Made by a program: the position numbers and the translations under genes
From: an uncultured Bacilli bacterium
GTDB lineage: Bacteria; Bacillota_I; Bacilli_A; RF39; UBA660
Direction: 5' to 3'
NCBI GenBank assembly: GCA_944332715.1
Contig: CALVKN010000002.1
Location: 1 to 63,551 of the forward strand
DNA: 63,551 nucleotides
Notes under the pieces: model-generated
The model's database searches: none
What the model was told of the DNA's origin: nothing
What the model saw: the letters and a program-made list of their open reading frames with translations, nothing else
In this document: piece after piece, positions 37,707 to 53,382 of the stretch
Numbering within the stretch: the first letter of the stretch is position 1
Layout: every line of letters starts with the position of its first letter

Positions 37707-39212
37707 ATGAGTGTGTACGGAGAATTTTTTACAAAATTTATGGAACCTTTCTTTGAAGGGTTACTAAATATTTTCAAGGGGATTGGTAGTGGCATTGGGC
37801 AAATGTTTAATATTGTCAATTACATTACAGTAATAAATGACTACAAGAGTGATTTAACAGGTGTTGGCTTGGTAATAATGATTCTTACAATAATTTTGTT
37901 AGTTGCTATAATTGCTGTTATAATTTTCTTTATATATCGAGCAATTAGAACATATGTAAGATACAGAAGAAATGTAAAAAAAGAAGATCAACTTATCGAA
38001 GAAATCGAAGTTTTAAATAATGAAATTTTAAAACTAAAAAGACAAAACGCTAAAATTGCTGAACTTACCAATGAAAATGGAGAAATTGAATATGATGAAG
38101 ATGGCAATGTTAAGGGAGAATTAAAAGAAGGCGAAAGCAGATTCTTTAAACTTAGCAGTGTTGATGCTAAATTTGCTGAGTACACTCCAGAAGAAATTCA
38201 TAATGACTTTACTTTAGATAGTCTATGTGAACAATTCAGAAACTTTGCAGCATCTAAATTAGGTTTATATTATGATATTAATTTAATAAGATTATTTGTT
38301 GCCTCATTTGCATCCAATAAACTTATAATTCTTGAAGGTATTTCTGGTACTGGTAAAACTTCCCTTGCTTATGCTTTCGGTGAATTTACTAAAAATGAAA
38401 CAACTGTAGCAAGTGTTCAACCTTCATGGAGAGACTCAACCGAAATATTTGGTTACTTCAACGAATTTACCAAGAAATTTAATGAAACTGAAATACTAGA
38501 AAAGATGTATGAAGCACAATATACTGACGAAGTTTATATCACACTTCTTGATGAAATGAATATATCTCGTGTTGAATATTATTTTGCTGAAATGCTATCT
38601 ATTCTAGAACTTCCTAATAAGAAAGACTGGGTTGTTGAATTAGTACCAAATGTTTGGCCAGGAGATCCAGAAAAACTAGATGAAGGAAAATTAAAGATTC
38701 CAGAAAATATGTGGTATGTTGGTACAATCAACAACGATGACTCAACATTTATGATTACTGATAAAGTTTATGACCGTGCTATGCCAATAGCAATCGATGA
38801 TAAATGTGAAGAATTCGAAGCTCCCGATACGGAAGCAGTTCAAATCAGTTATAAATATTTCCAAAATCTATTTGTTGAAGCCGAAAACAAACATGCAGTA
38901 ACTGATGAAACACTAGAAAAGGTTGCTCAACTTGATAGATATGTAATTGATCACTTTAGACTTGCTTTTGGTAACAGAATAGTCAAACAATTAAAAGAAT
39001 TCGTTCCAACTTTTGTTGCCTGTGGTGGTGATGAAGTAGCTGGAATCGATTATCTTATAGCTCATAAGATACTAAGAAAATTTGAACAATTAAATTTGGC
39101 ATACATTAAAGATGAAATAGATGGTTTAATAACTTACTTAGAAAAATTATTTGGTACTGGTAAAATGCCAGAATGTAAAGCTTATTTACTACGTTTAAAG
39201 AAGACGATATAG
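37707..39212 (+). CDS. Membrane-anchored McrB-like AAA+ NTPase (AAA_5 type)
   Basis: N-terminal TM (VGLVIMILTIILLVAIIAVIIFFIY), coiled coil, Walker A LEGISGTGKTS, Walker B plus signature LLDEMNISRVEYYFAEMLSILE, IPENMWYVGTINNDDS (NxxD-like) and DKVYDRA, collinear with McrB motifs. Confidence 0.75.
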   Translation: MSVYGEFFTKFMEPFFEGLLNIFKGIGSGIGQMFNIVNYITVINDYKSDLTGVGLVIMILTIILLVAIIAVIIFFIYRAIRTYVRYRRNVKKEDQLIEEIEVLNNEILKLKRQNAKIAELTNENGEIEYDEDGNVKGELKEGESRFFKLSSVDAKFAEYTPEEIHNDFTLDSLCEQFRNFAASKLGLYYDINLIRLFVASFASNKLIILEGISGTGKTSLAYAFGEFTKNETTVASVQPSWRDSTEIFGYFNEFTKKFNETEILEKMYEAQYTDEVYITLLDEMNISRVEYYFAEMLSILELPNKKDWVVELVPNVWPGDPEKLDEGKLKIPENMWYVGTINNDDSTFMITDKVYDRAMPIAIDDKCEEFEAPDTEAVQISYKYFQNLFVEAENKHAVTDETLEKVAQLDRYVIDHFRLAFGNRIVKQLKEFVPTFVACGGDEVAGIDYLIAHKILRKFEQLNLAYIKDEIDGLITYLEKLFGTGKMPECKAYLLRLKKTI

Positions 39213-39219
39213 GTGATGC

Positions 39220-40305
39220 ATGAATATAGTTGATTACATAAATAATTTAAATAAAGATAAAGTTACTAAATTTATTGAATCTACTAGTTCAGATATAACC
39301 ATAAAAAGTGATATTGAAAGAAAAGTAAGTGATACATCTTGGATTGATATGGTCGAAGAATGTATCCCTTATCTAGATAATATCATAAGAAATCCAAGAA
39401 GATTTATTGTTCAAGAGGAAAATATTGTACCAATCGAAAAAGCCAAAGTCGTAACTGAAGAATCTATTAGACACTTAGCTCAAAATACTAATTTGATTCA
39501 AGAAGTACATGATGATGGTACCGTTATTCCTCTTAAACTTCTTAATGTATATCGGGAAGAAACAATTGATCTTTATGAAAATAGATTTATTAAATCTCTA
39601 GTAGATAATCTGTATATGTTCGTTCAAAATAAACTAAATGAATCGGACCAAAAATCATATGCCAAGATAAAAAATGTTGTAACTTATGAAGGCGTAAAGC
39701 ACGAAAAATATGCAGACTTCAAAATAAATGTTACTTTAGAAGGTAATTACTCTGATGAATTAGAAGCAAGCAAAGATGGACACACTCTAGAAGAACGTAT
39801 TGAACATATTAGGGATGTCATCGGAGCCTTCCGGTCTTCAACATTTATTAAAGGTCTAAAAGAAAGTAGTCCAGTACGTAGTCCAATTAGAAAGACTAAT
39901 GTAATATTAAAAGAACCTAACTTTATTAAAGCATTAGAGTTATGGGAATACTTAGAAAAAAATAATATTAAACCAGTTACATCTATTGAACATGAAAGTA
40001 CTACTAGTAAAGATAATGATATAAAAGAAAAGTATGATTTTGGTTTCTTTATATCAACTGATGCTCTAAGAAAAGAAACAAGTGATACTCCAGTATATAA
40101 TGAGGCAATCATTTCTAAATTAGTCCAAGATTTTGTTTATTCTGGGGATGTAACAGAAACTGAATTTAAAAAGTTATTAAATAAAGAATTTAAAGAAGCT
40201 AGTAAACGTAAACAAAAAGAAGAAAATAACGTCAAAAAATGCTTTAAAGACTTTTTTGCAGACTTTGAGAAAAAATCTAGAAAAGCAATTAGTTTACTTA
40301 AATAG
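39220..40305 (+). CDS. Hypothetical protein, possibly McrC/DUF2357-like N-terminal region without an obvious nuclease motif
   Basis: 361 aa. IDLYENRFIKSLVDNL and NFIKALELWEYL segments resemble DUF2357/McrC-type partners (weak, by eye). No PD-(D/E)xK motif found by eye. Confidence 0.4.
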   Translation: MNIVDYINNLNKDKVTKFIESTSSDITIKSDIERKVSDTSWIDMVEECIPYLDNIIRNPRRFIVQEENIVPIEKAKVVTEESIRHLAQNTNLIQEVHDDGTVIPLKLLNVYREETIDLYENRFIKSLVDNLYMFVQNKLNESDQKSYAKIKNVVTYEGVKHEKYADFKINVTLEGNYSDELEASKDGHTLEERIEHIRDVIGAFRSSTFIKGLKESSPVRSPIRKTNVILKEPNFIKALELWEYLEKNNIKPVTSIEHESTTSKDNDIKEKYDFGFFISTDALRKETSDTPVYNEAIISKLVQDFVYSGDVTETEFKKLLNKEFKEASKRKQKEENNVKKCFKDFFADFEKKSRKAISLLK

Positions 40306-40311
40306 TGAGGG

Positions 40312-41577
40312 ATGAATATGGCTAAGAAAAAAGAAGATAAAATCAAACAAAATACAAATAGAGAAACAATAGACTTAAAAGAGTTTATGCTTCTTGATGC
40401 CAAAAAACAAGATGAAAAAATTAAAGAAACTCTAGATTTAATATATGAAGGCAAGTTAGAAGTAACAAAAAAACATATAGAAAAAGTCTTAAATATTTGT
40501 TTTGATACCAAAGATAATGAAATCTATTTGCCAGGTAGTTTATGTGTTGAAAAAACCGGTAGTAAATTAACATTCTTCTTTAAAAAACGTAATAATGTTG
40601 GCCTTATTCTTTTATTCCTTTTAGCCTTTTTATTTGTTGCGGGCTTTGCCACTTATACTGGAGTTCAATATTTAGGAAGACTGCAAATGAATCAAGACTT
40701 AGATGGTGATGGTATAGCAGATTTAAACATTGACTTAGATGACGATGGTATCTGCGATATTAACTGTGATACTGACAAGGACGGCAAACCTGATCGAAAT
40801 ATAGATTATCATAATAATAGAAAACCAATATTTAATGTTTTAATGGATGATGATACACTTTTTAATCCTGTAAACCAAGATACTAATAATGATGGTAAAT
40901 GTGACATTAACTGTGATTCAAATGCCGATGGCTGGCCAGATTATAACATCGATTATGATGGTGATGGGGAAATTGATTTAGATAGAGACACCAATAATGA
41001 TGGCATTAAAGATTTGGATTTAGACTTTAATGGTGATGGTGTATGTGACCTTAACTGTGATGATGACAAAGATAATCTTTGTGATAGAAACTGTGCAACT
41101 ATAGATATTACTGGAAATGGTGGAGGAACTAGTCAAGAAGGTGATGGAGACTATGGATTATCTTCTGCAAACTTAATAGTAATATTTGAAAGTAGAAATA
41201 ATGTTGTAGCCGAAAATATCTATCCGGATGACCAAGAAGAGGGCGAAGGTATTAACACAACTGTTCCAGATTTAGTATTTACAGTTGAAAATACTACTAA
41301 TAGAACTCTAACTTATAATCTAGGATGGTTAATTAATAGTAATACTTTTGAAACTGATAACTTCTGGTATCGTGTTGTAAGTGATAATGGTGGACTTAAT
41401 CAATCTTGGACAACAGCACCATTTGAAACTACAGACTTTGCAACAAATGTTGAAATAGCACCAAATACTACTCAAACATACCGAATATCATTCACATTAC
41501 ATGGAACTGGTGAAGAACAAAATATCGATCAAGGAAAAGTTTTTGATGCTGAAGTAACTTTAGAATTAAATGAATAG
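40312..41577 (+). CDS. Single-pass membrane protein with thrombospondin-type-3-like Ca-binding Asp repeats and a beta-rich C-terminal domain
   Basis: About 95-aa cytoplasmic N-domain, TM (VGLILLFLLAFLFVAGFATY), then repeated DxDxDGxxDxNxD units (DLDGDGIADLNIDLDDDGICDINCDTDKDGKPDRNIDY ...), then a ~150-aa domain. Confidence 0.75.
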   Translation: MNMAKKKEDKIKQNTNRETIDLKEFMLLDAKKQDEKIKETLDLIYEGKLEVTKKHIEKVLNICFDTKDNEIYLPGSLCVEKTGSKLTFFFKKRNNVGLILLFLLAFLFVAGFATYTGVQYLGRLQMNQDLDGDGIADLNIDLDDDGICDINCDTDKDGKPDRNIDYHNNRKPIFNVLMDDDTLFNPVNQDTNNDGKCDINCDSNADGWPDYNIDYDGDGEIDLDRDTNNDGIKDLDLDFNGDGVCDLNCDDDKDNLCDRNCATIDITGNGGGTSQEGDGDYGLSSANLIVIFESRNNVVAENIYPDDQEEGEGINTTVPDLVFTVENTTNRTLTYNLGWLINSNTFETDNFWYRVVSDNGGLNQSWTTAPFETTDFATNVEIAPNTTQTYRISFTLHGTGEEQNIDQGKVFDAEVTLELNE

Positions 41578-41581: not shown

Positions 41582-43045
41582 GGTTAATTGTCAAATAGTG
41601 TGTGTAGCACAAGATAATTACCATGAGAGGTAGCTTAAATAGCTACTTCTTTTTTAATGAAAAATAAACCTTTGCATATCATAATCCTAGCTTTAAATCT
41701 TCTAAAAGATCTAAAGCCAAAAGCAATTCGTTTAATGACTTTGATAAAGTTATTATTACCTTCAATAAAACCATTATTGAAATGAAATTTAAAAGAGTTT
41801 TTAATATAAGGTGAAAATTCTTTTAAAGTTTTAATTGAAGTAAGCATATAATCAGAAATATTAGTATATCTTTGATTGATGGTTTCATTAAATAAATCAA
41901 AATTATCGTTTTGAAAAGCATCAAGTAAATTTTGATAAACATTATAAGTACTTTTAAGTTCATCTGAAAGATTTAATAAATAGTTTAAAACATCAGATTC
42001 TGTAGTGAGATTAGGAAAGCAAGTAAAACGTTTCCACATAGAGTAATCGACATCATTTTTAGATTTTAAAAGTAATCTCCAATATCTTTTAAGTTTATTA
42101 TAATTGGCTTTGTCATATTTCATAAGCCTAATTCTAGTTTTATTTAAGGATCTGGAAACTAATTGGATTAAATGAAATTTATCAATTACAATAGAAGCAT
42201 TAGGAAACATCTTTTTAATTAAAGAAACATAAGGAGAATACATATCAATTGTAATAACTTTAACATTAGCTCTAGCTTTATGAGAATACCTAGAGAAATA
42301 TTTAATCAAACTATCTAATCTACGATCTTCAACAATATCAATAATCTTACCAGTTTTACCATTACATAAATGAAAACTCATGGCCCCATCCGCAGATTTA
42401 ACAGATTTAAATTCATCAAAAGATAAAATTTGAGGAAGATAAGTCTTATGAATCTTTTCTAAATCGTAGTAGGAATCCATAACTCTTTCAACAGTATTAG
42501 GAGAAACGTTATGATTAATAGCAATATCTTTCTCACTAATTTTAGAAGCCAAAGATTTAGCAATAGAATATTTAGTATTGTTAGAAATAAAACAACCATA
42601 ATTAACAATATTAGTTTTTAAAGTAAAGGCTTTATTACAATGCTTACAAAGATATCTTTGCTTATGAAGACGAAGAATTGTTTTATAACCAGATACATCT
42701 AAGACTTTAATATTAGAGGTAATAAAGCCATGCTTTTCAAATAATTCATCAAAAACAACACCACATCTAGGACAGGATTCTGGCTTGTATGAAAGATATC
42801 CTTCGAAAATCTTATGAATAATACCTTTGATTTTCTCTTCTTTGTAAAAATTTTCTTTAAAAAAGATATTATTGTCTTTTAATCCTAAGATATTTGTTAT
42901 ATAATTTAAATGGAACATGTTATCACTTCTTTCTTATATTTTGGATAATTATATTGTAACAGGAAATGGTAAACATGTTCCTTTTATTTTGTAAAAAAAC
43001 AAAAGTGTATGTAAACCACTTACACACACTAAATATTTTACAACC
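41582..43045 (-). mobile_element. ISL3-family insertion sequence
   Basis: 1464-bp element. Imperfect terminal inverted repeats GGTTAATTGTCAAATAGTGTGTGTA (41582-41606) and its partner at 43021-43045. Single transposase ORF. Flanked by a 14-bp direct repeat. Confidence 0.85.
41635..42918 (-). CDS. ISL3 family transposase
   Basis: 427 aa. N-terminal zinc finger (CPRCG...CKHC), SFDEFKS, ITIDMYSPY, VIDKFHLIQ DDE_Tnp_ISL3 landmarks. Confidence 0.92.
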   Translation of the reverse strand: MFHLNYITNILGLKDNNIFFKENFYKEEKIKGIIHKIFEGYLSYKPESCPRCGVVFDELFEKHGFITSNIKVLDVSGYKTILRLHKQRYLCKHCNKAFTLKTNIVNYGCFISNNTKYSIAKSLASKISEKDIAINHNVSPNTVERVMDSYYDLEKIHKTYLPQILSFDEFKSVKSADGAMSFHLCNGKTGKIIDIVEDRRLDSLIKYFSRYSHKARANVKVITIDMYSPYVSLIKKMFPNASIVIDKFHLIQLVSRSLNKTRIRLMKYDKANYNKLKRYWRLLLKSKNDVDYSMWKRFTCFPNLTTESDVLNYLLNLSDELKSTYNVYQNLLDAFQNDNFDLFNETINQRYTNISDYMLTSIKTLKEFSPYIKNSFKFHFNNGFIEGNNNFIKVIKRIAFGFRSFRRFKARIMICKGLFFIKKEVAI

Positions 43046-43079: not shown

Positions 43080-43108
43080 TTGCAATGAGGAAAACATTTT
43101 GCTATAAT
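43080..43108 (+). promoter_or_regulatory. Consensus-like promoter of the peptide-maturation operon
   Basis: TTGCAA (43080-43085), 17-nt spacer, TATAAT (43103-43108). Confidence 0.65.
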
Positions 43109-43143: not shown

Positions 43144-43257
43144 ATGAAAAAGGAAAAAAGCAAAAAGAAGGAAAATAAAATCTATATTAAAGAATTAAGG
43201 CCAGACATGACCCAATGCCGCATTATTGTTATTGATAAAAAGGAAAAAGTAAAATGA
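43144..43257 (+). CDS. Small Lys-rich ORF (37 aa), translationally coupled to the first radical SAM gene
   Basis: ATG 43144 behind AGAGG. Sequence MKKEKSKKKENKIYIKELRPDMTQCRIIVIDKKEKVK. Stop TGA overlaps the next ATG (ATGA at 43254-43257). Absent from the ORF track (under 60 aa). Confidence 0.4.
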   Translation: MKKEKSKKKENKIYIKELRPDMTQCRIIVIDKKEKVK

Positions 43258-44513
43258 AAACTTTTTTAGAGTCAACAAATGTTAATTCGTTTTATAATTT
43301 AAACACATTAACTTATCCGGTTATAGTATATTTGAAAATAACAGAATGTTGTAATTTATGCTGTAATTTTTGTTCTCAAGCATATGAGAAAAAGAATATT
43401 ATGGATATAAATTTAGCTAAAAAGATTTTGAGAGAATTGCACAATGGAGGAGTTGTATCTATTAATTATACTGGTGGAGAACCGCTCCTTTATCCTGATT
43501 TACAAGAACTTTTAAAGTATGGTTCAAGTTTAGGATTTGAACAAACATTAATTACAAATGGATTAAATATATTAAAGAATAAGAATATTTTGAAATATGT
43601 TAATTGTATTGGTATATCATTGCATGGAACTCCTGAAATACATAATCATCTTTGTAATTTGCCAAATGCCTTTGATAAAGTTAAAAGCAATATAGACAAA
43701 TTATTAAGTGATTATCCAAAAATTAAATTGAATTTAAATTGTACCTTAACAGAAGAAAATATTAACGAAGATTCCCTAAAATTTTTAAAAAATTTTGCTC
43801 AAGAAAGAAATATTAAACTATGCTTTGGCAGACTAAATTATTTAGGATTATCTTCTAACACAAAAATAATAAATCCAGATAAGTATTTAAAAATAATTGC
43901 TGAACTAAAAAAAGAGTATTTTAATATATCTATAAGTAATTGTATAGCGCATTGTACCCATCAGCAAGAATATAAGTATTTGAATCATGCTTGTGGAGCA
44001 GGCATATCAATCTTTAGCATTGAACCGAATGGCGATGTTAAAATATGCCCATCATCATCATATATTTTAGGAAATGTTTTAAATACAAAATTCAGTAAAA
44101 TAATAAAAAATAAAAAATTAGATAATTATAAGAAATTAAATTGGCTTCCTAATATATGCCGAATTTGTAAGGATTTTTCTTATTGTAAAGGGGGATGCCA
44201 CGCTGAAGGAAATTCACTATTTTATGAAAATACATGTGATACTTTAGTTATTGATAAGTTAAATAGCGTTTGGGAGAAAATAAAAAATAAAAAAATAATT
44301 TCTAAATGTAATAAATTACGTAAAGAGAAAAATAAATATTTAATAATTAAAATACCTATAAGGAAAATAGATAAATTAGGTTATAAAATTTTGCTTCAAT
44401 GTGATGGAACAAAAACAGGATCAGAAATTGCTGAAATATTTAGTAAAATAACTAATATAGAAGATTTTTTATCCACGTTATATCTTGATAACATAATAGG
44501 AGTACAAAAATGA
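43254..44513 (+). CDS. Radical SAM/SPASM peptide-maturase-type enzyme with C-terminal PqqD-like (RRE) segment
   Basis: CX3CX2C (CNLCCNFC), GGEPLL. SPASM-type Cys clusters (CGAGISIFSIEPNGDVKICP; CRICKDFSYCKGGCHAEG). C-terminal ..KILLQCDGTKTGSEIAEIF...FLSTLYLDNII resembles PqqD. Confidence 0.85.
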   Translation: MKTFLESTNVNSFYNLNTLTYPVIVYLKITECCNLCCNFCSQAYEKKNIMDINLAKKILRELHNGGVVSINYTGGEPLLYPDLQELLKYGSSLGFEQTLITNGLNILKNKNILKYVNCIGISLHGTPEIHNHLCNLPNAFDKVKSNIDKLLSDYPKIKLNLNCTLTEENINEDSLKFLKNFAQERNIKLCFGRLNYLGLSSNTKIINPDKYLKIIAELKKEYFNISISNCIAHCTHQQEYKYLNHACGAGISIFSIEPNGDVKICPSSSYILGNVLNTKFSKIIKNKKLDNYKKLNWLPNICRICKDFSYCKGGCHAEGNSLFYENTCDTLVIDKLNSVWEKIKNKKIISKCNKLRKEKNKYLIIKIPIRKIDKLGYKILLQCDGTKTGSEIAEIFSKITNIEDFLSTLYLDNIIGVQK

Positions 44514-45709
44514 AAAAAAGAGAAATTGCTAATGACAGATATATCATATATATTAACAATAAATACTATGTAGTAAATGAGTATACTTTAAAAATTATAA
44601 GTGCTTATTATGATAATAATAAAAATATAGAAAAAACCGCAAAAGGTCTAAATATAAGTGGATTTCACTTAAAAAGAATTTTAAATAAATTACAAAAAGA
44701 AATAAAGAATATTACTTATTATGAAGATAATGTAAACTTGAATTTTCCTCTTAAAATTCAATGGAAAATAACTAATAAATGCAATCTTTTATGTCTTCAT
44801 TGCTATTTGGGAGCATTGAATAATAAAGAGTTAAGCGAAGATAAATTATTTAAAATTACTGATAAAATAATTAATAGCAATGTTTTTGAAGTAACATTAA
44901 CTGGAGGAGAAGCATTATTAGTAAAATCATTACCATTAATTGTATCTAAATTGCTTAAAAATGATATCAAAGTAAATATTTTTACTAATGGTTTACTGCT
45001 ACCAGACTTTGAACGGAAGTTAGTTGATATTTTAGGGTATGCTCCAACAGAAAAATTAGACTTTTTTATTAGTTTAGATGGCTTAGAAAATAGTCATGAT
45101 AAGATTAGAGGTAAAGGTAATTTTAAAAAAACATTTAATAATATAAAGTTAATTACTCAAAAAGGATATCGTATTACTACTAATACAGTTTTAAATACAT
45201 CTAATTATTTGGATGTCCCTGATTTATATAAGTTATTATGGGAAACTGGTATTTATAAAATTCAAATATCTAATATGATTTCTTTAGGCCGAGCAACTTC
45301 TGATATGTTACTTTCTGAGAATCAACATGAAGAATTTTTAAAAAATTTTAAAAAAATATTAAGTGAGTTAGATCGAGGAGCTAAACTTCTGTATGCAGAT
45401 ATGCCCGATGAGGAATGCCAAAGTAAGGTATATTTATTATCAGGTAATAAAACAGAATATTTACAAAAAGAACATTGGAAATGTTCTGCTGGTATTGGTA
45501 AATGTACAATCGAATCAAATGGTGATGTTTATTGTTGCCCATTTATTAAAAATTACTGTTTAGGAAACATTAATGAAAAAGATATAGCACAAATTTGGGA
45601 TAATAAAAAAAGATATGAATTTTTGAAAATGATTGCTAAAGAAAATAATGATAGTAGAGTTTGTATTGCTGCTAAGTCTAATTATAAGGCGCGAAAGGAG
45701 GTGATTTAG
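44510..45709 (+). CDS. Radical SAM/SPASM-type enzyme with N-terminal RRE-like segment
   Basis: Overlaps the previous gene (ATGA). CNLLCLHCY (CX3CX2C), TGGEALL, CSAGIGKCTIESNGDVYCCPF auxiliary cluster motif. The N-terminal 70 aa look winged-helix/PqqD-like. Confidence 0.85.
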   Translation: MKKREIANDRYIIYINNKYYVVNEYTLKIISAYYDNNKNIEKTAKGLNISGFHLKRILNKLQKEIKNITYYEDNVNLNFPLKIQWKITNKCNLLCLHCYLGALNNKELSEDKLFKITDKIINSNVFEVTLTGGEALLVKSLPLIVSKLLKNDIKVNIFTNGLLLPDFERKLVDILGYAPTEKLDFFISLDGLENSHDKIRGKGNFKKTFNNIKLITQKGYRITTNTVLNTSNYLDVPDLYKLLWETGIYKIQISNMISLGRATSDMLLSENQHEEFLKNFKKILSELDRGAKLLYADMPDEECQSKVYLLSGNKTEYLQKEHWKCSAGIGKCTIESNGDVYCCPFIKNYCLGNINEKDIAQIWDNKKRYEFLKMIAKENNDSRVCIAAKSNYKARKEVI

Positions 45710-45835
45710 TTGAAAAAAATAATAAGTATCCTTAAAAGGGCTTTTGGTAAAAATAAAGTAATTGATTTATTTGAATCTAATAACGAAGCAACATTAGCTG
45801 AATTAGGTGGAAATTATTGCTCTGATTCATGCTAA
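45710..45835 (+). CDS. Candidate RiPP precursor peptide (41 aa, TTG start): leader ...ATLAELGG, core NYCSDSC
   Basis: Strong SD AAAGGAGGTGA (45694-45704) 6 nt before TTG 45710, which directly abuts the TAG of the preceding rSAM gene. Sequence MKKIISILKRAFGKNKVIDLFESNNEATLAELGGNYCSDSC*. Not in the ORF track (non-ATG start, under 60 aa). Confidence 0.65.
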   Translation: MKKIISILKRAFGKNKVIDLFESNNEATLAELGGNYCSDSC

Positions 45836-45851
45836 AAAGGAGGTAAGAAAT

Positions 45852-46838
45852 ATGGCTTCATCTTCTGTTTGGAAAGATAATACAATTTTGAGAAAATGGT
45901 TGAAAAAATATAGTTTAGATTTTTTGGATGGTAATTTTAATTATGATTTGACTGATTACTTATCTGATCCTTTACTAAATGCATTAGCCAAAAAATTAAA
46001 TATAGATAAAGAATATATTTATCTGGGAGCAGGAAGCAGTCAAATCATAACAAACATTTTAAATTTAAAAGTTTGGAATAAAATTTTTATTACTTCTCCA
46101 GAGTTTGGATTATATAATAGAAATCTAGAAAAGAACAGCATCAATCATGTCAAAATTGAATGCATAACAACTGTCGATTTTGTAAATAAATTAAGTTCTA
46201 TTAAAAGCACAGAGGAAGACCTTTTATGCTTATCATCACCTAGATGGTTTTCTGGTGAGAGGTTTTCTGATGAGCAGATTTATACCATTTTACAGGAATT
46301 TAAGGGAACTATTTTAGTTGATGAAGCCTATATTGCTTATTCTGATAATGAAAAAGGATTAATTGATTTAGCGATAAATAATGCTAGAATAATTCTTTTA
46401 AGAAGTTTTTCTAAAACATACTTTGCCTCAGGATTTAGAATTGGTTATATTATAACAACTAAAAAAATAGATGGCTTAAGAGATACTTTTATTGCTCCAC
46501 ATTCTATATCTACATGTTCAGCAAGATTTGCAACATCTTTAATTAATGATGATAAATTACAGAAAATTTTCAGTAATACAAGAAAACTAGTTAATAAAAA
46601 CCGTGATATTATTTATGATAATTTAAAAAATAATGGAAATTTTAATGTAATAAAATCAGAAGCAAATTTTATTACATTAATTTTTCAAAAACGTCAGGAA
46701 TTTAGCAAGTGTTATGAGTTACTTAAAGATCTACCGGGTATTCAAAAATTTGATAATAATATAACATTTATAAAAATTTGGATAAGCAATAAAGAATTTT
46801 CTTTAAAGATACTAAAAAGATTGGAACAGTTAAAATGA
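45852..46838 (+). CDS. Class I/II PLP-dependent aminotransferase (HisC-like)
   Basis: ATG 45852 behind AAGGAGG (the track GTG start overlaps the precursor). VDEAY, PLP-lysine motif SFSKTYFASGFRIGY. Confidence 0.85.
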   Translation: MASSSVWKDNTILRKWLKKYSLDFLDGNFNYDLTDYLSDPLLNALAKKLNIDKEYIYLGAGSSQIITNILNLKVWNKIFITSPEFGLYNRNLEKNSINHVKIECITTVDFVNKLSSIKSTEEDLLCLSSPRWFSGERFSDEQIYTILQEFKGTILVDEAYIAYSDNEKGLIDLAINNARIILLRSFSKTYFASGFRIGYIITTKKIDGLRDTFIAPHSISTCSARFATSLINDDKLQKIFSNTRKLVNKNRDIIYDNLKNNGNFNVIKSEANFITLIFQKRQEFSKCYELLKDLPGIQKFDNNITFIKIWISNKEFSLKILKRLEQLK

Positions 46839-48376
46839 TTTATTTGTATACACTTCCCGGTATAAATTTTAACTATCCTGATATAAAAAATATTTTATAT
46901 AGTACATATTTAAGACAAAATAAAATTAAATATAAATTTTTTGATTATACAGATTATCTATTAAATAATATTTTTATTAATAAAAATTTTAGTGAAGATA
47001 TTGATACCATAAAAGAAAATATTAAAAACAGTAATATGGATTTACTAAAGGCAAATAATAGTTTTATTAAAGCAATAAACAATTATTTAGATAAATTTGG
47101 TATTATTTATACTGGCCGAGGATTTAATTATAAATATCGTATAACTAATATTTCTGATTTTTTAAAAGTAGGTGAAAAAATTGAAGACTTCATTGATTTA
47201 TTTGTAATTGATCAATATAATGATGGTGACATTATATTTATGAATGTTTCCTATGGTTTTCAAGTCCCAATCGCAATAGCCCTATCTAAAAGAATAAAAA
47301 AATGTAATAATAATACCCGAATTATTTGGGGTGGAAATTATATAACGCAAATAAATGAAAATTGTAATGAACTAATAAATAAAGTAAAATACTTAGATGC
47401 AATTATAATATTTGATTATATTAAAACTTTCAAGGACTTGATTGCATATTATCAAGAAAGAAAATTAGAATTAATAAATGTCATAAGAAAAAATCAACCA
47501 TTTATTATAAGAAATAATTTAGTTGATGATAAAAATTATTATTATTTGGATTATTCTGATATAGATTTAAGTCATTATTTATCAAGGGATAGAATATTGC
47601 CAGTATTTTTGACTTACGGATGTTATTATCATAAATGTAATTTTTGTTCTCACCATTATCATTTCGGTGGTTACCTATCTATAAATCGGAAAAAGATGTA
47701 TGAAAATATTTTTAAAATGTATAAAAAAAATTCATTTGATAGTATAATCCTTATTGATGAATGTGTTCCTCCGAATATTTTATTGGAGTTTGCTGAGTTT
47801 TTACTAAATAAAAAAATCCATACTAAGTGGATGGTGGAAACTAGAATTAAAGAAGAGTATTTGGATAAAAGAAATGTTTTTAAACTTGCTGATAGTGGAT
47901 GTAAATTTATATCTTTTGGGATAGAAAGTTATAACAAAAGAATTTTGAGGTTAATGAATAAGGGAATAGATATAAAAAGCATTAAAAAAGTATTACGCAA
48001 TTTTTTTAATAGTAATATAATAGTGTCTTCGACATTTATGATTGGATATCCTAAAGAAAATATTTTTAATATATATAAAACCTTAAATTTTATAAAGAAA
48101 TTTAAATATATTGATGTTTTTGGTTTAAATATCTTTGTATTATCGCGAAATTCTATTCTATATAATGAATTAGGTTTTAAGAGTAATAATATTAATCTCA
48201 TTTATAGGTTTAAAAATAGTCGAAGAAATAAGATAGAAAAAATATTAAATACATTTAATAATAATAGCAAAATAAAAAAACTTAATAATATAAAAAATAA
48301 TTTGCTAAATAGATGTGATTATTTCTATTTAGAAAGAAAAAATTTTAGTTTAAATTATAAAGAGGTGATAAAATGA
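46835..48376 (+). CDS. B12-binding-domain-type (class B-like) radical SAM enzyme with atypical CX4CX2C cluster spacing
   Basis: 513 aa. About 250-aa N-terminal Rossmann-like region before GCYYHKCNFCSHH. Later FGIESYN. Overlaps neighbours by 4 nt on both sides. Confidence 0.7.
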   Translation: MIYLYTLPGINFNYPDIKNILYSTYLRQNKIKYKFFDYTDYLLNNIFINKNFSEDIDTIKENIKNSNMDLLKANNSFIKAINNYLDKFGIIYTGRGFNYKYRITNISDFLKVGEKIEDFIDLFVIDQYNDGDIIFMNVSYGFQVPIAIALSKRIKKCNNNTRIIWGGNYITQINENCNELINKVKYLDAIIIFDYIKTFKDLIAYYQERKLELINVIRKNQPFIIRNNLVDDKNYYYLDYSDIDLSHYLSRDRILPVFLTYGCYYHKCNFCSHHYHFGGYLSINRKKMYENIFKMYKKNSFDSIILIDECVPPNILLEFAEFLLNKKIHTKWMVETRIKEEYLDKRNVFKLADSGCKFISFGIESYNKRILRLMNKGIDIKSIKKVLRNFFNSNIIVSSTFMIGYPKENIFNIYKTLNFIKKFKYIDVFGLNIFVLSRNSILYNELGFKSNNINLIYRFKNSRRNKIEKILNTFNNNSKIKKLNNIKNNLLNRCDYFYLERKNFSLNYKEVIK

Positions 48377-50118
48377 GTATATCAATTAAAGAATTTAGAG
48401 ATTTTAAAACTAATTATTGTGATACTTTTTTTCCTAGTGATGTAACGATTTGGTCAAGTATAGTCTTATTAGAATGTATGGATAACCCGGACTTAATGGC
48501 TGAAGTAAAAGAGTATTTAACAATTAAGGAAGATATTAGTGCAAATGAACTTAATGATTTAATGCAAAAGTTAAGAGATAAAACTAATGAATATATAAAT
48601 ATGATGAATCATGCTGCAACTAAAGATGAAGCATATGAGATTTTTAGAATGTCTTTAGTATATTATGGTATTTTAGAATCCCTTGATGAACTGGCTAGTT
48701 TTTCAGCGAATTTAATTAGTCAAATAAAAGATAAATACAAAGATAATTACTTAGAGGTAATTGCTAATTTTGATAAAGGTAATTTATCTGTTGATGGTAG
48801 TAAAGTTTTAGAAAATATGGCATTACCCAAAGAATATAATGCTGATGAATTACTAAAAAAATATAGAGTGCTAAAAATATGGCAAGATAAACAACATGGT
48901 TATTATCAAACTGTTATTGAACCAATATTACATAAGATGGCAGAGTATTATGAAAATATGTATTCTAATTCTTTAGATGTTCATTTTGAAAGTCCTGTCA
49001 TGTATCTGAAGTTTTACCAATTATGTCAAAAAGATTTAATTTCAATTGATGAATTATCAAAACTTTATTTATGTGGTATAGATAAAGAATTAATTAAGCT
49101 AGTAGGAGGAAAAGGGTATGGTTTAACTGTTTTAAATGCCAAAGGAATAGAAATTCCTAAAACTTATGTAATACCTTGTTTTGCATCTTCTTGTGATATT
49201 CACGGGTTGGCAGAGTTAAGCAGTAATATTCATTATTCAGTGAGGAGTTCTGCTGATATTGAAGATGGTCAAAAAAATTCTTTTGCAGGTTTATTTGATT
49301 CCTATTTGGATGTTGATTATAAATCACTAAATGAATATATAGCTAAAGTTATTGCTTCAAAAGATAATAGTAGAGTACAAGAATACATTACTCATAATAA
49401 TTTAACTCAACCAAATATGGCTGTATTATTACAACCATTTCAAGAACCAACATTCGCTGGAGTATGGATAGGAAAGGATAGTAATAGTGGCTATTTAGAA
49501 TATGTCGAAGGTAATGGAGAAAAATTAGTTTCTGGAAAAGTTACACCGAAAATGGAGTCTTGGGATAACCATACAAATACTACTGATAAATTGAAATGCC
49601 AAAATGGTTTTGTAGGAGAAAAATTAATAGAATATCAAAAACTTCTTTCTGATAGCAATCCTGCTGACTTTGAATGGATGATTTTAAATGATAAGTTAGT
49701 TTTATTACAGTATCGTCCTGTTACAACAAAATTAGAAATACCAAAAGATATTAATTTAGAAGAAAAAGGTGTTTATAAAGGTATTGCAGCATCTCCAGGA
49801 TTTACTTCTGGACCAGCTAGGTTTATTAATGCTAGATACATTGATAAAGTTGATGACTGGAAAGATGGCGACATTTTAATGTCTTGGTATACTGATCCTG
49901 AATGGATGAACATTTTATCTCATTCTAGTGGAATTGTGACTGCTGTTGGAGGATTTTTATGTCATGCTGCAATTATAGCAAGGGAATTAGGAATACCATG
50001 TGTGATAGGTATCGGCGGAGATGCTATGAAAAAAATATGGAATGAAAAAGAACTGACTGTTGATGGAACTAATGGTTTAGTTAAAACTACCTTGACTAGG
50101 AAAAGAAATAGTAGATAG
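48373..50118 (+). CDS. PEP-utilising-enzyme family protein (PPDK_N ATP-grasp plus swivelling His domain, no PEP/pyruvate TIM barrel)
   Basis: About 230-aa unknown N-terminal region. GGKGYGLTVLNAKGIEIPKTYVIP (PPDK_N). C-terminal GGFLCHAAIIARELGIPCVIG (mobile His domain). Confidence 0.8.
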   Translation: MSISIKEFRDFKTNYCDTFFPSDVTIWSSIVLLECMDNPDLMAEVKEYLTIKEDISANELNDLMQKLRDKTNEYINMMNHAATKDEAYEIFRMSLVYYGILESLDELASFSANLISQIKDKYKDNYLEVIANFDKGNLSVDGSKVLENMALPKEYNADELLKKYRVLKIWQDKQHGYYQTVIEPILHKMAEYYENMYSNSLDVHFESPVMYLKFYQLCQKDLISIDELSKLYLCGIDKELIKLVGGKGYGLTVLNAKGIEIPKTYVIPCFASSCDIHGLAELSSNIHYSVRSSADIEDGQKNSFAGLFDSYLDVDYKSLNEYIAKVIASKDNSRVQEYITHNNLTQPNMAVLLQPFQEPTFAGVWIGKDSNSGYLEYVEGNGEKLVSGKVTPKMESWDNHTNTTDKLKCQNGFVGEKLIEYQKLLSDSNPADFEWMILNDKLVLLQYRPVTTKLEIPKDINLEEKGVYKGIAASPGFTSGPARFINARYIDKVDDWKDGDILMSWYTDPEWMNILSHSSGIVTAVGGFLCHAAIIARELGIPCVIGIGGDAMKKIWNEKELTVDGTNGLVKTTLTRKRNSR

Positions 50119-50121
50119 AAA

Positions 50122-51735
50122 TTATTTGTTCAAAAATAATTTCTCTTTTTCTTTTAATGTATTGTTTAACTTTTTCCAATTTTTATATTTGCAGTTTGCT
50201 TTGAGTTTGCATAACTTACAATTAGGACATTTAGGAATTATTAGTTTTAAATCTTTAATAATGAAGGAAAATTTATCTTGACAGTTAATACTATTTAAGT
50301 AATTTATTAATTTTTTATTGCTAAGGGTATTTAAGTCTGGTTTTTCATTAATTTTGTATTTAATTAAAACATATAATAATTCAAAAGTTATATTGTTGTA
50401 ATTTGTTTTAATAAAATTATATGAATGGAAGAATATACCTAATTTAATAAATGAATATCTAAAACTTTTTATCATATCTTCAATAATTAGACAAGCGCGT
50501 TTTAATTCGTCCTTATTATTTACAGTGTCTAAATTAAAATAAATGCTCTTCAAAAATTCAAATTCTTTTATTACAGAAGCTTCTTTATTATCTATTGTAA
50601 TAATATTAGACAAATTGGGAATAAATACTTTATAAGTATGAAATTTTAAGAATGAATAATCTTTAATATAAATACTTAAATTGTTTTTAGTAATTATGTT
50701 TATGAGTTCTTTATAAACATCTTTATTATTATCTAAATTTTTAAATGCTTTTAATTCATTATAATTTATTAATACATTAGAATTAAATATTATTGTAGGG
50801 TGTATGCCGTTATTAGTAGAATAATTATTTAACCAATTAACTTTTCTTTCATCTATAGTTAATTTATCATAGTTATTATTAATATCTTTCATTTTATTAA
50901 TTAAAGCATTTATATCTTTAAGGCCTTGAAATATTTCTGTTAGGCACCTTTGAATTGCTATGTCTATATTTAAATCACTTCCAACAGTCATGATATATTT
51001 GCTATTATCTTTATTAGTAATTATTACTCCAACTACTGGATAGATACCTAAAGAAAAGTCTTTAATATAAACATTTAAGTTATATTTTTTTATATTTTCA
51101 ATCTTATAGTAAGAATCTAATTTATTATCAATGATAATTGTATTTAATATTATTTCATTATTAACTATTGTTTGATAACAATATCTTTCAAATATTTCAC
51201 ATATGCCTTGATTTACTGCTTCAAAATAACTATTGCCTGCACATAAACCATTAGAGTAAGTTGTAGCATTAATTAATTTAATAGGTAGATAAACATACTT
51301 ATTGTTTTTTAAATCATAATACTTAGAAATTAAATTATATTTCGAATTATTATTAAAAAAAATATTTTTATTTACATTATTTTCAAAAAAGGTATTAATA
51401 ATATTTTGATTTTTTTGTATTATTTTGGGTTCTACTATTTCATCAGTATTGATAAAACTATTTTCTTTAGATAAATAATATATAGGAATTAATAATCTAG
51501 ATTGTAAACGCTCCATTAATTCGGCATAAGCAGATGCTTTGGCTAAATCTTTAGATATTCCCTTCCCATTAGTTCCTAAATTATAAAATCCTTTAATTTC
51601 TATTCTTATGGAATATAACTCTTTATTAATGCTTTTAAATTTATATTCTTTTACTTTTATATTATTCTGTTTTAATATTTTTTTTATTATTTCGATAGTA
51701 AGTTGGGGTTTACATTCTTTTCTAATATTATTCAT
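50122..51735 (-). CDS. YcaO-family ATP-dependent peptide backbone-modifying enzyme
   Basis: NGKGISKDLAKASAYAELMERL and later ICEIFERY, LTEIFQG segments typical of YcaO. ATG 51735 (MNNIRKE) preferred over GTG 51747. The stop lies 3 nt from the stop of the convergent PEP-utilising gene. Confidence 0.8.
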   Translation of the reverse strand: MNNIRKECKPQLTIEIIKKILKQNNIKVKEYKFKSINKELYSIRIEIKGFYNLGTNGKGISKDLAKASAYAELMERLQSRLLIPIYYLSKENSFINTDEIVEPKIIQKNQNIINTFFENNVNKNIFFNNNSKYNLISKYYDLKNNKYVYLPIKLINATTYSNGLCAGNSYFEAVNQGICEIFERYCYQTIVNNEIILNTIIIDNKLDSYYKIENIKKYNLNVYIKDFSLGIYPVVGVIITNKDNSKYIMTVGSDLNIDIAIQRCLTEIFQGLKDINALINKMKDINNNYDKLTIDERKVNWLNNYSTNNGIHPTIIFNSNVLINYNELKAFKNLDNNKDVYKELINIITKNNLSIYIKDYSFLKFHTYKVFIPNLSNIITIDNKEASVIKEFEFLKSIYFNLDTVNNKDELKRACLIIEDMIKSFRYSFIKLGIFFHSYNFIKTNYNNITFELLYVLIKYKINEKPDLNTLSNKKLINYLNSINCQDKFSFIIKDLKLIIPKCPNCKLCKLKANCKYKNWKKLNNTLKEKEKLFLNK

Positions 51736-51756
51736 AAATATCACCAAATTTCCTTT

Positions 51757-51785
51757 ATACTACCATTTCCTATAAATGGTGTCAA
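51757..51785 (-). promoter_or_regulatory. Promoter of the YcaO gene
   Basis: Minus strand: TTGACA (51785-51780), 17-nt spacer, TGgTAGTAT (-10 at 51762-51757). Confidence 0.5.
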
Positions 51786-51795
51786 TTATTTAAAG

Positions 51796-51824
51796 TTGAA
51801 AAATACAATATATTTTGTTATAAT
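51796..51824 (+). promoter_or_regulatory. Promoter of the dual-Rx4H gene
   Basis: TTGAAA (51796-51801), 17-nt spacer, TATAAT (51819-51824). Confidence 0.6.
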
Positions 51825-51849
51825 ACGCCATATATTTAGGGGGAATATC

Positions 51850-53382
51850 ATGAATATCGATAAGGCAAGCCTAGGTACTAGATACTTAATTAATTATATA
51901 AATAGTAAAAATCCTGCTCATTTAGATGTTGTAAGAAACTGCACTAAAGATATAGCATTCTGGGCAATGCTTATGCATTTTTGCAATAATATGAATGATT
52001 TATTTGATGCTTTATCAGAACCTATTTTAGAGCGAATATTTACGCAAAAAAAGGTTGTAAAAGTTGTAGATATTTTAAGTGATGCAACTGAAGAATACAC
52101 TTATGGCTTAGGTTATACTTCTAATACTAAGGGTAAATACAAAAATCACATAAGGAATATTAGAAATGCTTTAGCCCATGGAACATTTGAATTTGATGGA
52201 ACCCAAATACATATTTCTACACCTAACTCTTATGTGGCAACATTTGATTATGAATGGTTTAAATCCCTAGTCTTATCGACATTATCCAATGAAAATTTTC
52301 AAATAAAAAGAGGTATCGAAGATTATTCTATAATCAAGTTAACTGAAGGTACTGATAAAAATTATAAAACAAGTGATATAAAAAATTTAGAACAACTCGG
52401 TTTAATAAAATTAATTAAATTAACTTGTAAGGCAACTGATGCAACAGTAATATCAACAAAGTTTCCAGGATTAGCCAAAAAGGAAGGTAAAATTACCTTT
52501 GATGATTTAAAAATAATATTTATTAGATTATTATCGGAATTATCTAGCAAAGTAGGTTTTACAAAGACTTTAGAAAAATTAAAAAGAGCATATAAAGGTA
52601 TAATTGATATTGAAGCATTAGATATTAAAAGCGATGCCTTAAATGATCCTGAATTTCTAAATCTACCACTAGAATCAGGCATAGATTATTTAGTAAACGA
52701 AATAAGTAGTAAAGATAAAAATACTAAAAGTACAATTAATTTAAAAAGAATATTAAATTTACTTGATAAATTAAATGAAGATGCACCATTAACACCTTCA
52801 GAAGAATATGCTCTAAAAGATACCTTAGAGTTTTTACTTAATTTATATGGCTATATCTATTTTAATCAATTTCCTTCCAAAAAAAGAGATGATGATTCCT
52901 TAGCCCCATTTGATGAAAAAATAGAATTTAAAATAGTTCATGCCAAAAACGTATGGGGAGAATATATTAAAAAAATCAGTAAATCAATTGACTGTTTAAT
53001 TGCTGCTAATGCTAGTGAAAAAAGAATTGATATGTGGAAAGAACGTCTTAGAATATATAAATTAAGACTAGAAAAAATGCTTGAAGATGATAATAATATA
53101 TTGCGTTTGCTAAGAAATTCTATAACTCATGGATTAGTTGAACATAGTGATAACTTAATCGTTTTTTATGGTGAAGAACCCACTCTTACTTTACCTAAAA
53201 TTAATTCTAAAACTAAAGAATTAACAGAATATACTTTTCAAAATAAAGGAAGAACTTTTGAAATTGATATGGATAAAGATACATATTTGTCTTTACTTGA
53301 TAGCTTATATGAAGCAAGTGGTATCGAAATAAAAGTAAATATATCTAAATACCGTAAAAGAAAAAATTATTTAAGTAATTAA
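51850..53382 (+). CDS. Hypothetical 510-aa protein with two Rx4H (HEPN-like) motifs
   Basis: ATG 51850 behind GGGGG. Motif 1 IRNIRNALAHGTFEFDG (R-x4-H at 52162-52179). Motif 2 LRLLRNSITHGLVEHSD (53113-53130). No TM or signal peptide. Confidence 0.6.
   Translation: MNIDKASLGTRYLINYINSKNPAHLDVVRNCTKDIAFWAMLMHFCNNMNDLFDALSEPILERIFTQKKVVKVVDILSDATEEYTYGLGYTSNTKGKYKNHIRNIRNALAHGTFEFDGTQIHISTPNSYVATFDYEWFKSLVLSTLSNENFQIKRGIEDYSIIKLTEGTDKNYKTSDIKNLEQLGLIKLIKLTCKATDATVISTKFPGLAKKEGKITFDDLKIIFIRLLSELSSKVGFTKTLEKLKRAYKGIIDIEALDIKSDALNDPEFLNLPLESGIDYLVNEISSKDKNTKSTINLKRILNLLDKLNEDAPLTPSEEYALKDTLEFLLNLYGYIYFNQFPSKKRDDDSLAPFDEKIEFKIVHAKNVWGEYIKKISKSIDCLIAANASEKRIDMWKERLRIYKLRLEKMLEDDNNILRLLRNSITHGLVEHSDNLIVFYGEEPTLTLPKINSKTKELTEYTFQNKGRTFEIDMDKDTYLSLLDSLYEASGIEIKVNISKYRKRKNYLSN

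Follow-up and report, generated by a model that had tools for sequence, protein, structure and literature searches.

A stretch of 63,551 nucleotides from an uncultured Bacilli bacterium (contig CALVKN010000002.1, positions 1 to 63,551 of the forward strand; hereafter the window) was analyzed for a small open reading frame (ORF) at 45710-45835, located between the gene for a radical S-adenosylmethionine (rSAM) enzyme and that for an aminotransferase. Judged by its conservation in related loci, this ORF is a genuine protein-coding gene. Its 41-residue product is probably the precursor (substrate) peptide of a modification cluster of the ribosomally produced, post-translationally modified peptide (RiPP) type, and we infer a chemistry in which its C-terminal Cys-x-Asp-x-Cys (CxDxC) motif is crosslinked by thioethers and then tailored. 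If this reading is right, the ORF is the missing substrate gene of a peptide-modification cluster widespread in uncultured Bacilli of human and animal guts; if the peptide is overlooked, one appears to be left with a set of orphan enzymes, and with it the system is directly testable.

The features of the small gene are as follows.
45710-45835, + strand: TTG-initiated 41-codon peptide gene (ORF calls; conservation)
45694-45704, + strand: Shine-Dalgarno (SD) sequence AAAGGAGGTGA within the 3' end of the upstream rSAM gene (sequence; homologous loci)
45812-45832, + strand: codons of the C-terminal motif N35-Y-C37-S-D39-S-C41 (alignment; synonymous and nonsynonymous differences)

Location and translation signals

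The ORF was translated as MKKIISILKRAFGKNKVIDLFESNNEATLAELGGNYCSDSC. The upstream gene, encoding the second of two rSAM-SPASM enzymes (rSAM2), ends with TAG at 45707-45709; TTG 45710 abuts this stop, and the frame is open until the TAA at 45833-45835. An earlier sequence-only reading had described the TTG start, the strong SD and the abutting TAG, and all were present as described; the gap of 6 nt that it gave was corrected to 5 nt, counted from the end of AAAGGAGGTGA to the TTG. Measured from the GGAGG core (45697-45701) the gap is 8 nt, equal to that before the aminotransferase ATG at 45852 (GGAGG at 45839-45843). GGAGG occurs 40 times on both strands of the window, and 15 of these copies lie just 5' of the start of an ORF that is 100 aa or longer. 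In shuffled sequence of the window's GC content (28.3%) a stop-free run of 41 codons was found at just 1.8% of positions.

The same reading had held that ORF callers miss the gene. This was borne out using a collection of 15 billion proteins, from which the exact 41-aa peptide was absent and in which a 37-aa ORF product encoded upstream in the cluster and the aminotransferase were both found. Five independent assemblies were 100% identical over 45680-45860, TTG included, and in their gene calls the gap was empty and the aminotransferase was stretched to a GTG at 45807. The locus is a concrete case of TTG starts and length filters concealing precursor genes and yielding wrongly extended neighbors.

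In the window the ORF lies in the frame of rSAM2 with the TAG alone between them (45707-45712), which looks incidental. Programmed read-through or a fusion with rSAM2 was rejected, since other loci have a spacer of about 50 nt and a different frame. Genetic code 4 was rejected as well: genes that stand apart in other loci are bounded by TGA stops with ATGA overlaps.

Collection of related loci

Genomes were scanned using the rSAM2 protein as the query, which gave 19 syntenic loci in metagenome-assembled genomes of uncultured gut Bacilli. A metagenome scan using the peptide alignment as the query added 7 loci, and a Logan contig added one more. Among L005-L018, the type B loci form a distant branch with rSAM2 42-44% identical, in which the peptides were located using a hidden Markov model built from the peptides. 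Homologues outside the scanned loci were sought by running phmmer exhaustively against 1.84 billion representative proteins. A word-indexed protein search with the 41-aa peptide returned a single homologue; the others came from the exhaustive search and from direct translation of the syntenic loci. For the 37-aa ORF family the protein database was searched using a 46-aa homologue as the query. Gene content was compared by clustering every ORF of at least 90 aa from 27 loci.

Conservation and selection

Conservation of the frame in homologous loci, which had been proposed as a check, spoke clearly for the gene: about 25 distinct homologues were found in syntenic clusters of uncultured gut Bacilli, and the frame is under strong purifying selection. 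Over the final 13 codons, compared among 10 distinct DNA sequences, the proportion of synonymous differences was 0.70 (near saturation) vs 0.096 for nonsynonymous differences, and nonsynonymous change was limited to 2 positions. Loci with rSAM2 57-67% identical carry at the homologous site a small ORF, each with its own SD, ending ...LAELGGNYCxDxC. Homologous loci retain the SD as AGGAGGTGA or AGGTGGTGA, 5-8 nt before the start codon. At the homologous position the start codon is ATG (L004, L017), GTG (L001, L029) or TTG (window), in each case with a conserved SD. The exhaustive phmmer search gave 11 further peptides of 37-42 aa with the C-terminus E[L/C][G/S]GNYCxDxC.

In two independent assemblies of one species the equivalent start position is ACG (L003 11220; L025 9963). 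An in-frame TTG preceded by AGGGG lies 6 codons upstream of this ACG and may be the start instead.

The peptide ORF was found in all complete related clusters, at varying positions. It lies between rSAM2 and the aminotransferase in the window, L001-L004, L017, L024-L026 and L029, between rSAM2 and a phosphotransferase gene in L022 and L023, and between the phosphotransferase and a YcaO gene in L027, L028 and the type B loci L005-L018. Its position thus varies while it stays in the cluster, and it therefore travels with the cluster and not with one neighbor.

Start of the aminotransferase

45852-46838, + strand: HisC/CobD-like pyridoxal phosphate (PLP) aminotransferase, 328 aa (Pfam Aminotran_1_2, 4.5e-26; sub-threshold NCBIfam hisC, 9e-39)

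Database records hold the aminotransferase both as a 343-aa protein (GTG 45807, overlapping the peptide gene) and as a 328-aa protein (ATG 45852). A chance ORF or non-coding spacer in front of an aminotransferase starting from GTG 45807 would agree with the automatic callers, which in several assemblies began the protein at the GTG and annotated no gene in the gap. The comparative data already refute this account and leave it next to no credibility: the frame is under purifying selection, the ORF is conserved at different cluster positions, and no Rfam family matches the window. At L001 two stop codons lie between the peptide frame and the aminotransferase ATG, which closes the GTG extension, and the aminotransferase homologues, type B included, all begin M-A/S-S-V/I-W at the same residue. 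Because of these stops and this alignment, the start is assigned to ATG 45852 and not to GTG 45807, a start that the sequence-only reading had named as evidence against the hidden gene and that was not upheld. The GTG frame of the window is open only as the +1 frame of the conserved GGTGGTAATTATTGC (GGT-GGT-AAT-TAT-TGC). In type B the region upstream of the aminotransferase is a methyltransferase gene or plain intergenic DNA, with no peptide.

Anatomy of the peptide family

The only residues invariant in the two branches taken together are C37, D39 and C41; F12, L20 and G33 are nearly so. Position 38 is S, E or G, and position 40 is S, T, I, L, V, C, A or Q. The type B peptide reads M-I-x-F-h-K-K-L-F-K-..-N-h-L-I-N-L-N-N-V-N-K-T-L-S-M-S-M-A-G-N-G-N-C-S-D-C/A/Q-C. 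The first 30 or so residues of the 41-aa peptide begin with a basic amphipathic stretch and include the conserved motif x-L-F. As read from the alignment, the family signature is C-x-D-x-C at a free C-terminus, neither NYCSDSC nor a strict Gly-Gly junction.

A core NYCSDSC had been proposed earlier. Its two Cys and its Asp proved invariant, whereas its serines are not conserved and N-Y becomes N-G-N in type B. Phosphorylation or dehydration of Ser, also suggested, was not sustained: because positions 38 and 40 vary as above, the peptide cannot depend on either serine. Thioethers formed by its Cys residues remain plausible.

The Gly-Gly leader end was not supported either. Most type A members have GG at this place, two (P0049, P0054) have SG and the type B peptides have AG, and the Gly before Asn is the sole near-invariant residue of the pair. 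The double-glycine leader consensus is L(-12)..E(-8)L(-7)..I(-4)xGG; the peptide (…LAELGG) has E at -4 and L at -3, a spacing unlike that consensus. Among the ORF clusters of the 27 loci no exporter (ABC exporters included), C39 peptidase or immunity gene was conserved near the peptide. The precursor-type, TTG-initiated peptide beside rSAM maturases was supported, and the Gly-Gly end, the fixed core and the Ser chemistry were not.

The adjacent maturase and its predicted fold

44510-45709, + strand: rSAM-SPASM enzyme 2 (rSAM2), 399 aa, with an N-terminal domain (residues 3-67) resembling a RiPP recognition element (RRE) (Pfam, AlphaFold2, Foldseek)
43254-44513, + strand: rSAM-SPASM enzyme 1 (rSAM1), 419 aa (Pfam Radical_SAM, 8e-16; SPASM, 3e-7)

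The closest solved sequence to rSAM2 was the sactipeptide maturase SkfB (E 1e-25, 24% identity). An AlphaFold2 model built with 33 homologues had a predicted local distance difference test (pLDDT) score of 85.6, and residues 3-67 were modeled as three strands and three helices (pLDDT 83-94), the RRE-like topology listed above. The top full-length Foldseek matches of the model were SkfB, SuiB and CteB, all RRE-bearing, leader-binding RiPP maturases. As modeled, rSAM2 has the fold of a leader-dependent peptide maturase. No Pfam PqqD match was obtained for rSAM2, only weak helix-turn-helix matches, and its family comprises 268 sequence clusters with no name beyond 'radical SAM protein'.

For rSAM1 the NCBIfam matches were sub-threshold only, to peptide-maturase and cofactor rSAM families, with MftC and PqqE the best. 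All NCBIfam matches of the cluster enzymes were far below the family cut-offs, so no cluster enzyme was placed in a curated equivalog family. Neither the 41-aa nor the 37-aa peptide matched a precursor family in Pfam or NCBIfam.

Cluster genes and their order

The remaining features of the cluster are as follows.
43080-43108, + strand: promoter-like site 5' of the operon (TTGCAA, 17 nt, TG-TATAAT; 10/12 matches)
43144-43257, + strand: second conserved small ORF, 37 aa, MKKEKSKKKENKIYIKELRPDMTQCRIIVIDKKEKVK, whose stop overlaps the rSAM1 start (ATGA)
46835-48376, + strand: B12-binding-type rSAM enzyme (B12-rSAM), 513 aa (Pfam Radical_SAM)
48373-50118, + strand: phosphoenolpyruvate (PEP)-utilizing-type phosphotransferase, 581 aa (Pfam PPDK_N, 1e-25; PEP-utilizers, 2e-21)
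50122-51747, - strand: YcaO-domain protein, 541 aa, convergent with the operon (Pfam YcaO, 6.6e-41)

The B12-rSAM gave sub-threshold NCBIfam matches to PhpK-family and RiPP C-methyltransferase rSAM enzymes. The phosphotransferase consists of an N-terminal 280 aa of unknown kind, a PPDK_N ATP-grasp domain and a mobile His domain; its nearest solved proteins are PEP synthases and proteins of the rifampin phosphotransferase type. It is conserved in 21 loci, and YcaO adjoins the cluster in 21 loci. In a promoter and terminator scan the density of sites in this AT-rich region was not above that of shuffles, so the operon boundaries were drawn from gene packing only, and the promoter-like site at 43080-43108 is only suggestive.

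In the window the order is 37-aa ORF, rSAM1, rSAM2, peptide, aminotransferase, B12-rSAM, phosphotransferase and convergent YcaO. In type B it is (methyltransferase), aminotransferase, B12-rSAM, 37-aa ORF, rSAM1, rSAM2, phosphotransferase, peptide and convergent YcaO. The contigs of L022, L023 and L027 are without the aminotransferase and B12-rSAM. What stays constant is a core made up of two rSAM-SPASM enzymes, the phosphotransferase, YcaO and the two small ORFs. In L027 and L028 the peptide is flanked by two YcaO-phosphotransferase pairs: its gene lies between the phosphotransferase and a co-directional YcaO (L027 6923-10824; L028 55-3488), with the second pair around. These double pairs suggest that YcaO and the phosphotransferase work as a pair.

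The only other recurrent genes encode a Peptidase_S51 protein 3' of YcaO in 7 type B loci (for example L005 10449-11294, L007 15131-15976 and L010 13080-13928) and a class I methyltransferase in 6 loci. In L003 and L025 a Peptidase_S51 gene lies about 4 kb upstream (Pfam 5.8e-37 for the L003 representative). The Peptidase_S51 product is a candidate leader or processing peptidase.

In L019 (CP091726.1, 5950-14718) all cluster genes are in several pieces, with homopolymer-length differences from the near-identical L010 and L011. This fragmentation is probably a long-read assembly error rather than real decay.

Proposed function

Translation of the peptide would start at TTG 45710, coupled to the termination of rSAM2 by means of the SD in its last codons. 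The N-terminal residues, about 30 in number, would most likely serve as a leader bound by the RRE-like domain of rSAM2, and the invariant C-x-D-x-C-COOH would be the site of modification. The first chemistry is most likely a radical-SAM thioether that joins the sulfur of a Cys to a carbon neighboring a carboxylate, in the manner of PapB. This enzyme links Cys to the carbon alpha to the carboxylate that ends the side chain in Asp or Glu in Cys-Xn-Asp with n = 0-6 (PMC9413430), and it also forms crosslinks to the C-terminal residue (PMC12373016). By analogy, the invariant set of two thiols, the Asp carboxylate and the C-terminal carboxylate fits PapB-type chemistry; the acceptor would be C-beta of Asp39 or a carbon of the C-terminal residue, and one or both rSAM-SPASM enzymes would act. 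YcaO and the phosphotransferase would then carry out an ATP-dependent activation of backbone or side-chain oxygen atoms, and the aminotransferase and B12-rSAM would add further tailoring in most clusters, where they are present. The 37-aa ORF is part of the same system, and its product may be a second substrate.

Several results weigh against this assignment, among them that neither small peptide matched a Pfam or NCBIfam precursor family. No leader protease or exporter is conserved in the 27 loci, where only the Peptidase_S51 gene recurs after YcaO, in the type B loci mentioned. An RRE in rSAM1 could not be demonstrated (AlphaFold2 single-sequence pLDDT 38; hhalign against the rSAM2 N-terminus, probability 2.7%). 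Type B loci whose rSAM2 proteins share just 71-84% identity have peptides that are 93-100% identical over their final 27 residues, and conservation of this degree would be unusual for a secreted antimicrobial. The unusually strong constraint on the sequence and the lack of a conserved exporter in the neighborhood both disfavor a hypervariable bacteriocin, and a conserved signal or a cofactor-like or cell-associated product would be the favored kind.

This conservation, with the peptide more constrained than its own enzymes in type B, also suits another role, in which the peptide would be the scaffold from which a small molecule or cofactor is derived, as with mycofactocin or PQQ: its CxDxC would be crosslinked, cut off, tailored by the aminotransferase, B12-rSAM and phosphotransferase, and used inside the cell. 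Exporter and immunity genes are not conserved, MftC and PqqE are the best sub-threshold NCBIfam matches of rSAM1, the aminotransferase and phosphotransferase come from small-molecule enzyme families, and at least one host has a small genome (L019 chromosome, 1.46 Mb). The role nevertheless appears unlikely, as the aminotransferase and B12-rSAM are missing from the L022, L023 and L027 contigs, the transposase and recombinase genes that adjoin the cluster and the variable flanks are more typical of an accessory element, and neither an MftE/PqqF-type peptidase nor a dependent oxidoreductase was found nearby. A bolder form of the same idea, also unlikely, would have a pathway that pairs YcaO with the dikinase-type phosphotransferase make a new small molecule or cofactor-like compound from CxDxC, possibly together with the MTQCR peptide of the 37-aa family, with a conserved physiological role in small-genome gut Bacilli and not as a bacteriocin.

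The second small ORF

The ORF at 43144-43257 was overlooked in the sequence-only reading. Its family lies just 5' of rSAM1 in every related locus, has an invariant ELxPxMTQCR and comprises 42 unnamed clusters in the protein database; the exact 37-aa sequence was found on 12 contigs. It is part of the same system as the 41-aa peptide and may be a second substrate or an accessory peptide.

In four type B loci no stop separates the B12-rSAM from the 37-aa homologue (L010 4968-6737, L011 7011-8780, L015 7010-8779, L018 7010-8782), and in these loci the homologue retains its own SD and ATG. A common leader or homology of the two small ORF families was rejected (hhalign probability 1.8%, 8 N-terminal columns aligned), and their K-K-h-F-K-K resemblance is anecdotal.

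The 37-aa ORF could be the sole true substrate, leaving the 41-aa peptide as an accessory, for instance a metal- or cluster-binding partner acting through its Cys and Asp, or a regulator. The 37-aa family is at least equally conserved, keeps its place before rSAM1 throughout, and in the four loci above forms an in-frame fusion with the B12-rSAM gene; in addition, CxDxC could bind metal. Against this stands the layout of the two peptides: the 41-aa peptide has that of a classical precursor, leader and then core, with a variable leader-like N-terminus and an invariant Cys-bearing extreme C-terminus, whereas the invariant block of the 37-aa family is central and is followed by a Lys-rich tail. 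In type A loci, moreover, translation of the 41-aa gene is coupled to that of the RRE-bearing rSAM2. Such an accessory role for the 41-aa peptide was considered very improbable.

Comparison with known systems

A small, often unannotated precursor beside rSAM-SPASM maturases is of a known kind, represented by the ranthipeptides, sactipeptides, SCIFF, mycofactocin and PQQ. Membership in each named family fails on a tested defining feature, namely model score, motif, Cys count or partner genes. Two features of sacti- and ranthipeptides were found in the window: a short precursor with Cys donors adjoins an rSAM-SPASM maturase, and rSAM2 has an RRE-type leader-binding domain in its predicted fold.

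Ranthipeptides (PapA/PapB freyrasin; QhpC/QhpD-type Cys-Asp/Glu thioethers) likewise have a small precursor beside an rSAM-SPASM maturase. The invariant Cys and Asp here form a Cys-X1-Asp within the range tolerated by PapB (PMC9413430), and the free C-terminal carboxylate can be an acceptor (PMC12373016). The differences are a single CxDxC at the extreme C-terminus vs six CX3D repeats, a PapB model score of 54 bits vs a cut-off of 340, and the presence here of YcaO, dikinase-type, PLP and B12-rSAM enzymes, which are foreign to known ranthipeptide clusters. The sporulation killing factor system SkfA/SkfB is alike in that SkfB is nearest to rSAM2 in sequence and fold, N-terminal peptide-binding domain included; however, identity is 24%, SkfA is without the CxDxC C-terminus, and the export and immunity genes of the skf operon are absent here.

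SCIFF/CteB-type systems of Firmicutes also have short, highly conserved, often unannotated Cys peptides beside an rSAM-SPASM gene, with a conservation unlike that of bacteriocins. SCIFF (TIGR03973) differs in having a single maturase and a peptide with six Cys within about 45 residues, whereas the peptide here contains two Cys (some homologues have three) and its cluster is much larger; the peptide gave no NCBIfam SCIFF match at E <= 0.01. Thuricin CD (TrnA/TrnB, TrnC/TrnD) resembles the cluster in combining two small peptides and two rSAM-SPASM enzymes in one operon, but the small ORFs here are mutually non-homologous, there is no ABC transporter, and the additional enzymes are of other classes.

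Mycofactocin (MftA/B/C) and PQQ (PqqA/D/E) are alike in their tiny, often uncalled precursors, whose invariant motif is C-terminal or central, in having rSAM-SPASM enzymes with an RRE, and in later tailoring of the small-molecule type. In contrast, rSAM1 scored 83 bits vs the MftC cut-off of 265 and 81 vs the PqqE cut-off of 381; the motifs of those systems are GVY and E-x3-Y, while the peptide here ends in CSDSC, and no MftD/E/F or PqqB/C homologues are present here.

The YcaO-dependent RiPPs (azol(in)e, thioamide and amidine) are alike in that YcaO is invariably linked here and that cyclodehydration of core Cys or backbone thioamidation is possible. Bottromycin biosynthesis combines YcaO with a B12-rSAM. 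Unlike those systems, the cluster has no conserved E1-like/Ocin-ThiF or TfuA partner and no azoline dehydrogenase, and its YcaO is paired with a PEP-utilizing-type phosphotransferase, twice over in L027 and L028. The YcaO protein scored 66 on the SagD-family model vs a cut-off of 219. We know of no RiPP pathway with this pairing, and enzymes of the PEP-synthase/rifampin-phosphotransferase dikinase class are, to our knowledge, without precedent in RiPP biosynthesis. Searches of the literature for the motifs (GGNYC, NYCSD, NCSDCC, PEMTQCR) or the enzyme combination found nothing relevant. No counterpart has been described for an enzyme set in which two rSAM-SPASM enzymes, YcaO paired with a phosphotransferase of the dikinase type, the PLP aminotransferase and the B12-rSAM would act on the seven residues of a CxDxC C-terminus, and such a set could bring new post-translational chemistry to light.

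Flanking regions

The flanks of the window cluster (ISL3 transposase, DUF2357 restriction-like gene, signal peptidase) are common to no related locus. The ISL3-family transposase gene (41635-42918, - strand) lies directly upstream of the cluster, and serine recombinase genes were found near the clusters of L008, L009, L013, L018 and L023. The cluster is possibly mobile. At 39220-40305 (+ strand), between two large ORFs without Pfam matches, lies the gene for a DUF2357 (McrBC-type restriction-like) protein, and the region 37707-41577 may be a defense island by the transposase. Beyond YcaO, a TTG-initiated ORF of 559 aa without a Pfam match (51703-53382, + strand) overlaps the divergent YcaO start with its first 45 nt, and strong promoter-like sites facing both ways were located at 51757-51824.

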